Below, piece by piece: positions 2,814-61,206 of a stretch of DNA of 64,000 nt. Origin of the DNA: Octopus vulgaris (Eukaryota); NCBI GenBank assembly GCA_951406725.2, contig OX597839.1, forward strand, positions 7,874,001 to 7,938,000, given 5' to 3'. Both the position numbers and the translations under genes were made by a program. Each line of letters opens with the position of its first letter. Positions within the stretch are counted from its first letter, which is position 1. Under the pieces are notes generated by a model that did not search any database, was not told the origin of the DNA, and saw only the letters and a program-made list of their open reading frames with translations.

Positions 2814-2977
2814 GGGTAGAATTCACAAAAAAAAAGCAAAAGACGAAGTTAGGTGGTGTAGACAACAAACAGATGTATTAGTTTAACGCTCGGGATGTGA
2901 AACGGTCTTTAACGTTTCGAGCCTACGCTCTTCCACAGAAAGGAACAAACAGCGAAAATAAAGAAAGTGTAGTGGCT
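2814..2977 (-). mobile_element. Microsatellite-associated mini-element with compact hammerhead-like motif (subfamily H1b)
   Basis: Abuts (TA)n; homologous to 40699-40880. Confidence 0.75.
2907..2942 (-). ncRNA. Minimal type-I hammerhead-like motif, core variant CUGUGGA
   Basis: Minus strand CTTT-CTGTGGA-A-GAGC(GTAG)GCTC-GAA-ACGT-T-AAAG: stem I CTTT/AAAG, stem II GAGC/GCTC, palindromic stem III; A6 is substituted. Confidence 0.5.
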
Positions 2978-3250
2978 GCGTGTGTGAGAGTGAGTGTATA
3001 TGTTTGTGCGTGATTAACACATTCTAACAATTGATGTAGTTATGTTTGCGTGCCCGTAAAATAGCGGCACTGCAAAAGACATTGAGAGAATTAGTACCAG
3101 ACTTGAAAGACCTACTACGCTTGATTGAAAACGCATTGAAGGCGGTGGAACAGCAAGGCCGCAGTCCAATGACTGAAGCAAGTAACAGATTAAAAGTAAT
3201 CAAAAATAAATATAACCTTGTCTATTGCGGTTGTTAATTTTGAGGGACGT

Positions 3251-3746
3251 TTACTCTTTTACTTGTTTCAGTCATTTGACTGCGGCCATGCTGGAGCACC
3301 GCCTTTAGTCGAGCAAATCGACTCCAGGACCTATTCTCTGTAAGCCTAGTAATTTATCGGTTTCTCTTTTGCCGAACCGCTAAGTTACGGGGAGTAAACA
3401 CACCAGCATCGGTTGTCAAGCGATGTTGGAGGGACAAACACAGACACACAAACATATACACACACATACATATATATATATATATATATATATTTCCTGA
3501 GCGCCTATTAATAATAATACTGTAATTGTTCCATTGTTGTTGTTTTTTTGTTTTCCCGTTTGGATTAAAATTATATATATATATATATATATATACCTAT
3601 ATATACATATATACGACGGGCTTCTTTCAGTTTCCGTCTACCAAATCCATACACAAGGCATTGGTCAGCCCGAGGCTATAGTAGAAGATACCTGCCCAAG
3701 GTGCCACGCAGTGGGACTGAACCCGGAACCATGTGGTTCGTAAGTA
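3251..3746 (-). mobile_element. SINE family A, with an insertion in its internal TA/CA microsatellite
   Basis: Matches the full copies at 39511-39935 and 62986-63403; foreign segment at 3494-3572. Confidence 0.9.
3494..3572 (+). mobile_element. Truncated H1a mini-element inside (TA)n
   Basis: TTCCTGAGCGCCTATTAATAATAATACTG...TTGTTTTCCCGTTTGGATTAA aligns with 61125-61204 and, inverted, with 58573-58652. Confidence 0.7.
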
Positions 3747-4297
3747 GATAATGTCTCAACGTTTCTTAAATGCGATGCCAGCAACGGAGGTGGCAGTGGT
3801 GGTGATGGTGGATGTGATGATGTCATTGGTGTGTTACCGTGTAGCTTGATGTGAAGTAGTTGTAGTGATAGGGGTGTAATGCTAACAGCGATGTGTTTTA
3901 AATTGGCTGCTGACATTGAGGATGTTCATAGCTCAAGAACGAAGAGCTTCACTAATTTCCAATAGAATTATCGAAAAGTCATCGATAATCTGTTTAAGAG
4001 TTGATATGGGCTGAGCACCTGGGCGGGCTACGCGGTTTGATTAAGCCTATAACAAAAGGCAATCCATCTGTGACAGCTCCGACTCTGTAATCATCTCTTA
4101 TCTTCCTGTTTCTTTAAATCATTGGAGCAGGCTCTCGAAGGGTTTAGTCGAATCATTTAACCCTAGTACTTAGTTGCTTTTTTCTTTCTTTTTTTTTATT
4201 TCTGATACTGATTCAATTGAACTGTTTTGTGTTTATATACTTATATTATCATGGTGAAGTTTCTGATGATAGCATTGGATGTAGCTTTTTTAGCTGT

Positions 4298-4876
4298 TGG
4301 TGATGATGATGATGATGGTAGATCTGGTGGTTGTCGCAATGGTGATGGCAGTTGAGGTGATTGTGTTGGGATTGGGTAACATTAGTAGAAGTAGTAGTGG
4401 TGGTGGTGGTGGTAGTAGTAGTAGTAGTAGTAGTAGTAGTAGTAGCAGCAGCAATAGTAGTATTAGTGATAGTAGCAGCAGCAGCAGTAGTAGTAGTAGT
4501 AATAGTAGCAGCAGCAGTAGTAGTAGTAGTAGCAGCAGGAGCAGCAGCAGCAGCAGCAGCAGTAGTAGTAATAGTAGCAGCAGCAGCAGTAGTAGTAGTA
4601 GTAGTAGTAGTAGTAGTAGTAGTAGTAGTAGTAGTAGTAGTAGTAGTAGTAGTAGTAATGGTGGTGGTAGTGGTGGTGGTGGTGGTTGTGATAGCGTTGA
4701 TTATGGTAATGGTAATGATGGTGTGAAAGTGGTTGTGATGGTAGGTACGATGGTGGTGGTTCTGGTGGAGGTGTTGGTGGTGGTGTTGGTGGTGGTGTTG
4801 GTGGTGGTGGTGGTGGTGGTGGTGGTGGTGGTGGTGTTGGTGGTGGTGGTGGTGGTGGTGTTGGTGGTGGTGGTTA
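4298..4876. repeat. Compound (GAT)/(AGT)/(AGC)/(GGT)n array
   Basis: Direct reading. Confidence 0.95.
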
Positions 4877-5004
4877 TGTTAGATGTTACCTAATTAGTTG
4901 CAAATTTCTTCAGCCTACTTGGCTGTTTAATTAGACGGAACTGCTTGTTTTGCACCATTGATCAATCAATCGTTGGTGGTGGGCAAGGGAAGGGAGGTAG
5001 TCAC

Positions 5005-6235
5005 AGAGAGAGAGAGAGAGAGAGAGAAAGAGAAAGAGAGAGAGGGACAGAGAGAGGGGGAAAGAAAGGAGAGATAGCGAGATAACAGAAATATTGAGAG
5101 ACAGAATGAGAAACAAAATCGGGAGAAGGAAATGATAAAAGGAGAGATGGAGTGAGAGGAGAGAGAGAGAAAAAGAGAGAGGAAGAGAGAAAAAGAGACA
5201 AAAAGAGAGAGAGTGAAAAAAGAGAAAGAGCGAGAAACTGAGAGAGAGAGAAAGAAGGAGGTAAGGAGAATAAGAAAGAGAGAGAGAGAGAAGGAGAGTG
5301 GGAGAAAGAGAGAATAAAAAGGAGAAAAGAAATGAAGGAATGATATGAGAGAGAAAAGTTGAGACAAAAAAGAGAAGAGAGAGGGAGAGAATCTAGAAAT
5401 AAATGGACATATAAAGATAGATAGACAGACAGGCAGACATAGATAGATAGAGAGAGACAGTTAGACAGACAGACAGACGGATAGATAGATAGATAGATAG
5501 ATAGATAGATAGATAGATAGATAGATAGATAGATAGATAGATAGATAGATATATTGACAGACAGGCAGACATAGATAGATAGATAGATAGATAGATAGAT
5601 AGATAGATAGATAGATAGATAGATAGATATATTGACAGACAGGCAGACATAGATAGATAGAGAGAGACAAACAGACAGACAGACAGACAGACGGATAGAT
5701 AGATAGATAGATAGATAGATAGATAGATAGATAGATATATTGACAGACAGGCAGACATAGATAGATAGATAGATAGATAGATAGATAGATAGATAGATAG
5801 ATATATTGACAGACAGGCAGACATAGATAGATAGAGAGAGACAAACAGACAGACAGACAGACAGACGGATAGATAGATAGATAGATAGATAGATAGATAG
5901 ATAGATAGATAGATATATTGACAGACAGACAGACATAGATAGATAGAGAGAGACAAACAGACAGACAGACAGACAGACGGATAGATAGATAGATAGATAG
6001 ATAGATAGATAGATAGATAGATAGATAGATAGATAGATATATAGACAGACAGGCAGACATAGATAGATAGATAGATAGATAGATAGATAGATAGATAGAT
6101 AGACAGACAGATTGATAGACAGACAGATTGATGGATATATAGACAGACAGCAGAGAGACAGACAGACAGTCAGATAGACAGACAGACAGACAGACAGATA
6201 GACAGACAGGCAGGCAGGCAGATGGAGAGATAGAT
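5005..6235. repeat. GA-rich purine tract followed by a (GATA)n/(GACA)n array with higher-order units
   Basis: Recurrent interruptions ATATTGACAGACAGGCAGACAT and GAGAGAGACAAACAGAC...GACGGATAG. Confidence 0.95.
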
Positions 6236-59683: not shown

Positions 59684-59760
59684 ATATGTATACGTACAAA
59701 TATATATATATATATATATATATATATATATATATATATATATATATATATATATATATA

Positions 59761-60260
59761 TAAGGCCATTCCTCAATTGTTGTTGAATTTACATATATAG
59801 TCTTTGACTATTTTCTCTTTCTCACTAGACCGCTGGTGGCGATAAATTTCTATTGAATTTTTTGCTACCCTATATTGATTAATTGATGATTTTCTGACTA
59901 ATTCTGAAATTGAATCAGCAGTTTATATTTACTGCTGATAAGTTGGCGCGAGTACGATAGTTTTGAAAATTTTAGGGCAGATATTCCTAGGGCATAGATA
60001 CAGATGCCTCGTGTATATCCGTCTCTCCTGGCCTCTTTACCGACGAGGTGTAGCCTTTGCTGGATTGACTTAATTTAATTTAATTAAGCTGGTTTGCCAT
60101 TAAAAACACCGAAACAATGCATTGTCTAAAGATGATTTAGGGTAAATGTTTTTAAATTTTCTCTAATTTCTGGATTACTACTACTTGGCGGTTTGAGTCC
60201 TGGCTGCTCTTTCTAGTGGGTCGAATGGCCTATTAAGGCCATTCCTCAATTGTTGTTGAA
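59761..60260 (+). mobile_element. 500-bp hammerhead-bearing element (family H3) with 27-bp terminal direct repeat, in (TA)n
   Basis: TAAGGCCATTCCTCAATTGTTGTTGAA at 59761-59787 and 60234-60260 (period 473 bp); long TA arrays on both sides. Confidence 0.8.
60034..60132 (+). ncRNA. Type-I hammerhead ribozyme (U4C core variant, GUC site)
   Basis: Stem I TCTTTA/TAAAGA; core CCGACGA; stem II GGTGT/ACACC enclosing 54 nt; GAA; 12-nt palindromic stem III ACAATGCATTGT; predicted cleavage after C60126. Confidence 0.78.
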
Positions 60261-60694
60261 ATATATATATATATATATATATATATATATATATATATAT
60301 ATATATATATATATATATATATATATATATATATATATATATATATGTATGTATGTATGTATGTATGTATGTATGTATGTATGTATAGATAGATAGATAG
60401 ATAGATAGACAGAGACAGACAGAAAGACTGACAGATAGATAGATAGATAGATAGATAGATAGATAGATAGATAGATAGATAGATAGATAGATAGATAGAT
60501 AGATAGATAGATAGATAGATATATATATAAACTTGCTTAGAAATGGATACGTGACATTCAATCATACAATAATATAAAGAAAATATATATATATATATAT
60601 ATATATATATATGTGTGTGTGTGTGTGTGTGTGTGTATGCATATATGCATACATACATATATATGTATGTATGTATGTGTATATATATATATAT

Positions 60695-60910
60695 GGGTAC
60701 AGGACGTCACAGGACGTAAACAACATGAAATACGAACACAAACATGGGTATGTGAACAACGAAACAAAAGGAAAACAAGACAAGTGACATAAAGAACGAC
60801 CCTTCATCACTTGTAGGCTGTCTATCTATTCCTCATTTCAATAGACAACCGACAACTGATGAAGACTCGTTTTTCATGTTACTTGTCTTTTTTTCCATTT
60901 GTTTCTCTCT
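60695..60910. mobile_element. TA-embedded island with a diverged ~65-bp fold-back
   Basis: Arms 60761-60825 and 60841-60905 are imperfect reverse complements; CTGATGA at 60856-60862. Confidence 0.7.
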
Positions 60911-61001
60911 ATATATATGTATGTATGTATGTATGTATGTATGTATGTATGTATGTATGTATGTATGTATGTATGTATGTATGTATGTATATGTGTGTAT
61001 A

Positions 61002-61206
61002 TGTGACCTCGTGAACACCGCCAGCAATTTTTTTCCCCTGTCTTCCCTTCTCGGGATCTTTCCTTCTCCTTTGTTTCCGACGAAGAGCTCCGCTCGAAAC
61101 GTTAAACCCTCCTTCTTCCCTTCTTTCCTGAGCGTCCAATAATACTTTATTTGTTCCACGTCCCCACGTTGCTGTGTTTTTTTGTGTTTTCTTGTTTGGA
61201 TGAACT
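61002..61206 (+). mobile_element. H1a mini-element between microsatellites
   Basis: Near-copy (inverted) of 58572-58774. Confidence 0.85.
61073..61107 (+). ncRNA. Minimal type-I hammerhead (U4C variant, GUU site)
   Basis: GTTT-CCGACGA-A-GAGC(TCC)GCTC-GAA-ACGT-T-AAAC; identical in both H1a copies while flanks differ. Confidence 0.68.

Follow-up and report, generated by a model that had tools for sequence, protein, structure and literature searches.

Hammerhead-bearing islands in TA microsatellites of Octopus vulgaris as probable 3′ ends of truncated Penelope-like elements

We analysed a stretch of 64,000 nucleotides of the Octopus vulgaris genome (GenBank assembly GCA_951406725.2, contig OX597839.1, forward-strand positions 7,874,001 to 7,938,000; hereafter the window, numbered from its first letter), in which a first-pass annotation had placed ten hammerhead ribozyme motifs within short non-repetitive islands. 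Very probably, these islands are for the most part the 3′ pseudo-long terminal repeat (pLTR) ends of 5′-truncated copies belonging to at least four coding families of Penelope-like elements (PLEs), together with a non-coding tandem repeat of 474 bp; all were likely inserted into (TA)n arrays already in place, through target-primed reverse transcription. A hammerhead-like motif whose stem III is self-complementary is indeed present at each of the ten sites, and every island abuts (TA)n or (GATA)n. The division into about six groups was also correct at a coarse level, with the five GAGC/GCUC motifs falling into three subfamilies (A1, A2 and A3) of about 75% identity. The islands were assigned as follows.

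2814–2978, minus strand: 3′ pLTR fragment of family A1, a putative Neptune-type PLE; its 3′ end joins (TA)n.
40703–40880, minus strand: second, more decayed copy of A1, with hammerhead 40786–40821 and a broken stem I; abuts (GATA)n.
58562–58778, minus strand: 3′ pLTR of family A2, a second putative Neptune-type PLE, with hammerhead 58669–58703 (U4C); (TA)n on both sides.
61000–61213, plus strand: second copy of A2, with hammerhead 61073–61107 (U4C).
54436–54615, minus strand: pLTR-like fragment of family A3, about 75% identical to A2, with a canonical-core minimal hammerhead at 54554–54586.
23450–23606, plus strand: forward arm of family D, the 3′ pLTR of a PLE with reverse transcriptase (RT) and GIY-YIG endonuclease; motif at 23501–23535.
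23240–23449, minus strand: inverted arm of family D, carrying a tail of about 40 bp; mirror motif at about 23350–23384.
17219–17357, minus strand: 3′ pLTR fragment of family E, a third PLE family, with a U3-A8 variant at 17297–17338.
59763–60262, plus strand: family C, 1.05 copies of the 474-bp non-coding tandem unit, inside (TA)n; hammerhead 60034–60132.
10385–10730, plus strand: fragment of a family B element, beginning with an inverted piece of about 25 bp from its own tail.
6890–7310, plus strand: AT-rich, 5′-truncated element end of family F, with an atypical motif at 6957–7056 and a long stem II.

Coding partners of the islands

Six of the ten islands (2907, 40786, 58669, 61073, 23501 and 17297) are 3′ pLTR ends of RT/GIY-YIG Penelope-like families. 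The annotation had found no open reading frame (ORF); this holds inside the window but not for the families: four of these, namely A1, A2, D and E, extend upstream into the coding sequence of PLEs at loci outside it, and the suspected connection with Penelope, including the linkage of copies to RT and GIY-YIG ORFs, is thereby borne out.

For A1, the C-terminus of a GIY-YIG endonuclease lies about 650 bp upstream at one locus and, conversely, the pLTR is found 250–1050 bp downstream on the same strand, at 72–89% identity, in 25/30 of the best endonuclease loci. Open frames of 767–1098 amino acids that contain both RT and endonuclease stand between pLTRs about 4.5 kb apart, and tandem units of 4.49–4.57 kb at three loci (L203, L204 and L206) form the pLTRs. 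The A2 family has a CA-rich 3′ untranslated region (UTR) of 2.4–2.9 kb, beyond which a related ORF was present in 17/30 loci; all four ten-kb stretches selected for this ORF continue to a pLTR 2.4–2.9 kb downstream, and the coding sequence is 50–70% identical to the A1 ORF. At the loci of family D, the endonuclease is upstream on the same strand in 24/30 and the motif downstream in 29/30, and the tandem unit measures 4.47 kb; such units were not seen for A2 or E. A 256-bp piece upstream of the D motif was 100% identical in 40/40 scored matches, and by this measure the family is very young; the copy in the window is a variant with about 47 extra bases ahead of the motif. Finally, a GIY-YIG C-terminus is contiguous with E about 490 bp upstream at two loci (L254 and L255), and its UTR is tied to RT fragments at a third (L256).

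The order of RT followed by a C-terminal GIY-YIG domain was established for A1 and D by Pfam and translation, for A2 by identity to the A1 ORF and for E by fragments. Pfam scores for D were 32.5 bits (RVT_1) and 27.0 bits (GIY-YIG), both above the cut-off, and RVT_1 scored 32.6 bits in the A1 ORF. The A1 and D translations show a CX4CX2C linker, a CCHH endonuclease and a DKG motif. With their RT and C-terminal GIY-YIG, DKG motif, linker, CCHH, pLTRs, tandem or inverted copies, tails of 30–40 bp and microsatellite bias, the families resemble the Neptune clade as described by Craig et al. (2021, PMC8557442), and the A1 ORF resembles by eye the Neptune1_Ap rows of the supplementary alignment of that study. 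The coding partners accordingly look like Neptune-type elements. Two points weigh against this assignment: it relies on motifs and visual comparison rather than on a tree, and the GIY-YIG score of the A1 ORF (17.5 bits) falls under the Pfam cut-off. The Hydra clade was considered for the A1 and D partners and rejected, as their ORFs have DKG and CCHH, not DKT without CCHH. Octopus PLEs are on record: Hydra-1_Obim and Naiad_Obim/Ovul are listed with a (TA)n preference, the former with a hammerhead (PMC8557442). Unlike Hydra and Naiad, the partners described here bear DKG, CCHH and a C-terminal endonuclease.

A picture in which the islands are generally non-autonomous and mobilised in trans, as the annotation proposed, is not supported by these findings. 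Because six of ten islands are ends of coding PLE copies, mobilisation in cis is the simpler reading. The population is nonetheless as large and diverse as had been supposed: first-look candidates in the genome numbered 2623 for A2, 1201 for A1, 801 for B, 2102 for C, 984 for D, 747 for E and 1458 for F, figures which, with 40 candidates scored per family, are lower bounds and not copy numbers. The annotation had also foreseen that, should the islands match Penelope pLTRs, novelty would fall and the ribozyme call would stand. For the families linked to PLEs this is what happened: there are published accounts of pLTR hammerheads, of a preference for TA and of a hammerhead-bearing octopus PLE, and the present families add members.

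A relative of D, which we call P209 (L358–L364, L260–L289), is a young and very abundant PLE with 14202 first-look candidates. Its hammerhead is of the U3-A8 type with an ACCGGU palindrome, and its tail resembles that of D; no match to this hammerhead was noted within the window. P209 was considered as the partner of family E and rejected, since a convincing E match was found downstream in 0/30 loci and P209 has a related hammerhead of its own. Whereas A1-type frames reach 1098 amino acids, D and P209 have two overlapping frames, unlike the single ORF of the Neptune clade in the available text of PMC8557442. In coding copies of both (L352:5056-5067; L360:3369-3380), an upstream frame of about 410–430 amino acids overlaps the 784-amino-acid RT/endonuclease frame at −1. 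The upstream-frame proteins are 47% identical between the two families, which share there a 12-mer containing U UUU UUA in 11/12 copies, the twelfth having one extra T. This 12-mer might serve for −1 frameshifting or as a splice acceptor. Downstream of it no stable fold was found, no joint ending at the candidate acceptor occurred among the contig joints listed, which is not proof of absence, and a search for frameshifting in PLEs gave only viral and general papers among the matches listed.

Conservation and activity of the hammerheads

Constraint on the motif was examined across a set of 98 distinct A-type sites, selected on stem II and the downstream flank irrespective of the core. C3, G5, G8, A9, G12, A13, A14, A15.1 and U16.1 were kept in 94–98 of the 98, while N7 took all four bases and H17 was U in 48, C in 33, A in 16 and G in only one. 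The outer pair of stem I was C-G in 43 sites versus G-C in 42, and in family C a 12-nt palindrome has been preserved through a compensatory double change (18 versus 9 contexts, with 4 non-palindromic). Stem I in the A types and the palindrome in C therefore show the expected covariation, although these counts represent few independent events in two main lineages, a limitation that weakens them. Judged from the aligned copies, this pattern of conservation and variation is that of a hammerhead. Paired stems I and II, a palindromic stem III and covariation were found for A1, A2, A3, B and C, and a conserved core with a free N7 and H17 other than G for the A types, B and C.

Against this background, A1, A2, C and D each show a single fixed departure in the core. 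The minimal A1 hammerhead (2907–2942) has A6U, an extra A after A9 and an ACGU palindrome, A6U being fixed in this family (47/98 A-type sites); U4C is fixed in A2 (42/98) and in C, whose hammerhead has the 12-nt palindrome. The D motif combines U3-A8 and an ACCGGU palindrome with a fixed A13C, observed in 34/34 motifs, albeit taken from near-identical copies. The E motif has a AACCGGUU palindrome and a U.U closing pair. The B hammerhead (10510–10641) has a canonical core, an 8-nt palindrome and a stem II enlarged by an insert of 95 nt. Elsewhere the defects are in the stems: a stem I of 2 bp in D and F, a U.U closing pair in E and F, and the broken stem I at 40786.

Minimal type I hammerheads were reported from pLTRs of metazoan PLEs by Cervera and De la Peña (2014, PMC4209133), and the present motifs are like theirs in the extra nucleotide after A9, the G10.1-C11.1 pair, the palindromic 15.2–16.2 positions and the U3-A8 variant, as well as in being mostly single motifs tied to truncated PLEs, with opposite-strand pairs and many families per genome. 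Cephalopods, family-wide A6U, the combination of U3-A8 with A13C and stem II inserts of 55–95 nt were not found in the portion of that paper available to us. More generally, an internal TA tract and family-wide A6U and A13C were not found in the literature covered, which is partial, and work on dimeric hammerheads may include such variants.

How these motifs would cleave depends on stem III. The palindromes measure 4 nt in the A types, 8 nt in B and 12 nt in C, with computed duplex energies of −1.7, −11.1 and −15.1 kcal/mol, respectively. On such calculations the A-type palindrome is unable to close stem III alone, whereas family C could close 4 bp of it as a monomer. Hammerheads with the 4-nt palindrome are thus predicted to require dimers, as in the model reviewed in PMC6765202, or help from a protein.

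Core changes have become fixed in families that spread recently, which suggests that cleavage is weak or slow, or that insertion does not require it. This leads to an alternative that deserves serious consideration, even if we do not favour it: the hammerheads may be real by descent and largely vestigial, the motif being kept for, e.g., protein binding or dimerization. It would fit the family-wide fixation of A6U (A1), U4C (A2 and C) and A13C (D) during spread. It would likewise fit the slow cleavage in vitro of A6C and U4C variants (PMC3088659), the unaffected insertion in vitro of catalytic mutants (PMC11167929) and the failure of 8/9 Xenopus dimers to cleave (bioRxiv 2026.07.22.740005). However, N7 varies freely, as does H17 except in avoiding G, the pair C3-G8 has changed in concert to U3-A8, and compensation preserves the palindromes; such constraints form the pattern of a cleaving hammerhead. 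Moreover, the motif of the anole PLE does cleave with its protein present.

Non-coding units and insertion into TA arrays

Family C differs from the coding families. It is a non-coding unit repeated head to tail, every unit bearing a type I hammerhead; its longest stop-free frame is 58 amino acids, and more than 1.14 units were present in 14/19 distinct loci, 10/19 with an inverted arm (six overlapping or self loci having been dropped). C is a retrozyme-like non-coding tandem unit. Retrozymes are regarded as non-autonomous PLE derivatives (PMC7229834; bioRxiv 10.64898/2026.07.22.740005), and C is like animal non-LTR retrozymes, in the available descriptions, in its short head-to-tail unit, type I hammerhead and proposed mobilisation by PLEs. 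It is unlike them in its dispersed insertions of one or two units in (TA)n, its inverted arms, U4C and 12-nt palindrome, and in being known here from DNA structure.

The proposal of trans-mobilised non-autonomous units has therefore been shown structurally only for the island at 60034; those at 10510 (B) and 6957 (F) may be such units too. No PLE ORF was found for B in 25+30 loci or for F in 20, nor in longer stretches, and the 5′ ends were not reached. The two families have a tail segment in common by eye, and may be non-coding passengers like C. The A2 precedent, in which the ORF can sit 3 kb away, speaks against giving weight to the lack of a linked ORF in B or F, or in A3, at which no search was aimed. 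That all islands are non-autonomous retrozymes replicating through circular RNA and mobilised in trans is nevertheless unlikely. What is structurally true of C, and consistent with B and F, is refuted for six of the ten islands by the upstream extension of A1, A2, D and E into RT/GIY-YIG. Furthermore, the head-to-tail joints of C occur in contigs of a DNA run as well as in those of runs guessed to be RNA, and so do not demonstrate circles. Contigs of the latter runs span the C unit and the 5′ region of P209, and are uninformative on cleavage, circles or strand.

Another retrozyme-like family may be seen at L211:3480-4420, with a 261-bp tandem unit, an inverted arm and a U3-A8-type motif. Hydra-like RT/endonuclease fragments were also encountered (L101:4836-6371, L085, L014, L247 and L253), two of them with a hammerhead-like motif downstream and one sharing by eye a short TTTTTTGCTACCCT motif with unit C. 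The fragments adjoining loci of D, C, A1 and A2 were judged to stand there by chance or through nested insertion.

Copies of the families share an architecture in which the 3′ end is fixed and the 5′ end variable, with an inverted 5′ arm in 39/158 copies. TA occurred no more than 13 nt from the first 3′ end in 108/148 copies with an anchor, and most of the misses continue into an optional tail of 30–40 bp of the kind seen in D and E. On the 5′ side, TA directly precedes the truncation in 60/116 non-inverted copies (19/27 in A2, 9/10 in D), compared with a background of 3.7% (615/16436) or 9.2%. The proposal that TA microsatellites serve as landing sites is thus supported, and the presence of TA at variable truncation points argues for (TA)n targets that were already there. 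The signal is clear in A2 and D, but several features of the data count against this conclusion: boundary assignment in the 158 copies was automated and noisy and covered top-scoring copies only, the A2 query contained about 10 nt of TA, and eight C rows scored as having TA at the 3′ side represent the internal tract in a tandem read-through.

This internal tract was recognised in copies that continue past the main 3′ end, where it measures 6–10 nt in four families: TTATATAT in full-length A1 (3 contexts), 10 nt in C (21/27), ATATAT in D (36/71) and ATATATAT in the related P209 (11/31). The second 3′ end of D has AAATAT (one case), and no read-through past the main end was seen in copies of A2 and F. 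Since internal TA tracts lie exactly at 3′ ends, and since ends of short interspersed elements within the window also abut TA, one might suppose that the elements, through slippage on the tract, created or extended the arrays instead of targeting them. We consider this improbable, given that TA is enriched, as above, also at variable 5′ truncations devoid of the element tract and that unrelated families are nested in the same arrays. A CACGTG or CTCGTG motif, noticed by eye about 5–15 nt after the internal TA tract in the tails of A1, D, E and P209 (e.g. 23240–23280), is a candidate RT-binding signal.

Insertion into pre-existing arrays could proceed as follows. The GIY-YIG endonuclease would nick (TA)n, and RT would begin on the element RNA at an internal site shortly beyond the pLTR. 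In four families this site is a short UA tract, which might base-pair with the target once nicked. If RT then fell off early, stubs of 150–400 bp would be left, each retaining the hammerhead located 60–250 nt from the priming end, and this proximity alone would explain ten motifs in 64 kb. Unit C, and possibly B and F, would depend in trans on these enzymes. We tentatively suggest, as one possibility among others, that TA-targeting Neptune-type PLEs and their passengers prime in a telomerase-like fashion, by pairing of the UA tract with nicked (TA)n. In this scheme they would use hammerheads with core changes expected to be crippling (A6U; U3-A8 with A13C), either as protein-assisted variants or because cleavage is dispensable.

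The closest studied system is PAc, a Poseidon element of the green anole, which nicks AT-rich DNA and has two internal start sites for reverse transcription, with the tail between them; the hammerhead of PAc requires protein and is dispensable for insertion in vitro (Frangieh et al., 2024, PMC11167929). The octopus families share with it, as far as the available text describes, two 3′ ends bounding a tail, AT-rich targets and a pLTR hammerhead. They are unlike PAc in that, in four families, the principal 3′ end falls at a TA tract within the element that matches the target. Priming by pairing faces two difficulties: PAc, the sole PLE tested in vitro, primes without target homology (PMC11167929), and the first end comprises only TAT in E (4/15) and only AT or TAT in B, so that pairing is not general. 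In the available part of PMC8557442 the TA bias is attributed to the zinc-finger linker and the internal tract is not mentioned, and our literature search found no work joining PLEs, microhomology, dinucleotide repeats, target-primed insertion and pLTRs. A large proportion of the short islands within TA microsatellites of the O. vulgaris genome is accounted for by the description given here. Family D, with near-identical copies, near-intact coding copies and two sharp 3′ ends, offers test material for two questions raised in the literature covered, namely why PLEs favour microsatellites and whether their hammerhead matters.

Motif frequency and other repeats in the window

The frequency of the motifs was compared with that in 100 local dinucleotide shuffles of the window. 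The strict descriptor required the core CUGANGA or UUGANAA plus GAAA with at most one mismatch, an exact palindrome, H17 other than G, a stem I of at least 3 bp and a stem II of at least 4 bp. In its compact form it matched 4 times in the window versus a mean of 0.02 (maximum 1) in shuffles, and with a long stem II permitted 7 times versus 0.53 (maximum 3). The enrichment over shuffled sequence is clear, and as hammerhead signatures the motifs of the window are real. Six of the ten sites (2907, 10510, 54554, 58669, 60034 and 61073) are descriptor-positive. The seventh match, at 9614–9687 (G5A), adjoins a repeat that recurs at 15283 and 34666, and may be due to chance.

The four sites that fail have degenerate motifs. 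That at 40786, in a decayed copy, has a broken stem I and an altered A6; at 23501, U3-A8 and A13C accompany a stem I of only 2 bp; at 17297, U3-A8 is combined with a stem II closed by a U.U pair; and at 6957, besides the 2-bp stem I and U.U closing pair, the palindrome is mutated here and intact in most relatives. An Rfam scan returned no hammerhead family among the best 150 of 382 matches, these being miRNA matches driven by microsatellites and a single weak match to a viral UTR. Monomer folding revealed no extra stability over shuffles except at 6957 (z −3.3) and marginally at 23501 (z −1.7), z-scores of this kind being uninformative for minimal hammerheads. Despite these failures and the mostly unremarkable folds, the idea that such motifs arose by chance in repetitive, AT-rich DNA can hardly be entertained, in view of the excess over shuffles, the position-specific conservation and a pLTR location as published; it is refuted for A1, A2, A3, B and C, while D, E and F rest on family context.

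Three further pieces of the window recall the hammerhead. The TA-embedded island at 58383–58535 contains a half-core with GAAA ahead of CUGAAGA, and that at 60695–60912 a half-core CUGAUGA within an inverted repeat; both recur at other loci and are possibly permuted motifs. A decayed piece at 54620–54812 (plus strand) has CUGACGA, and its GAA is followed by a palindrome of 10 nt; it resembles family B over short stretches, and gave no match among the loci compared.

The window, from a genome of 2.8 Gb, is rich in microsatellites (176 tandem-repeat rows) and also contains two dispersed short repeat families. Fragments at 45522–45932, 26660–27019 and 33584–34571 resemble what we take to be mariner transposase and long interspersed element coding sequence. 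Tandem arrays of short repeats, of 167–184 bp, are located at 24445, 30909 and 33031.

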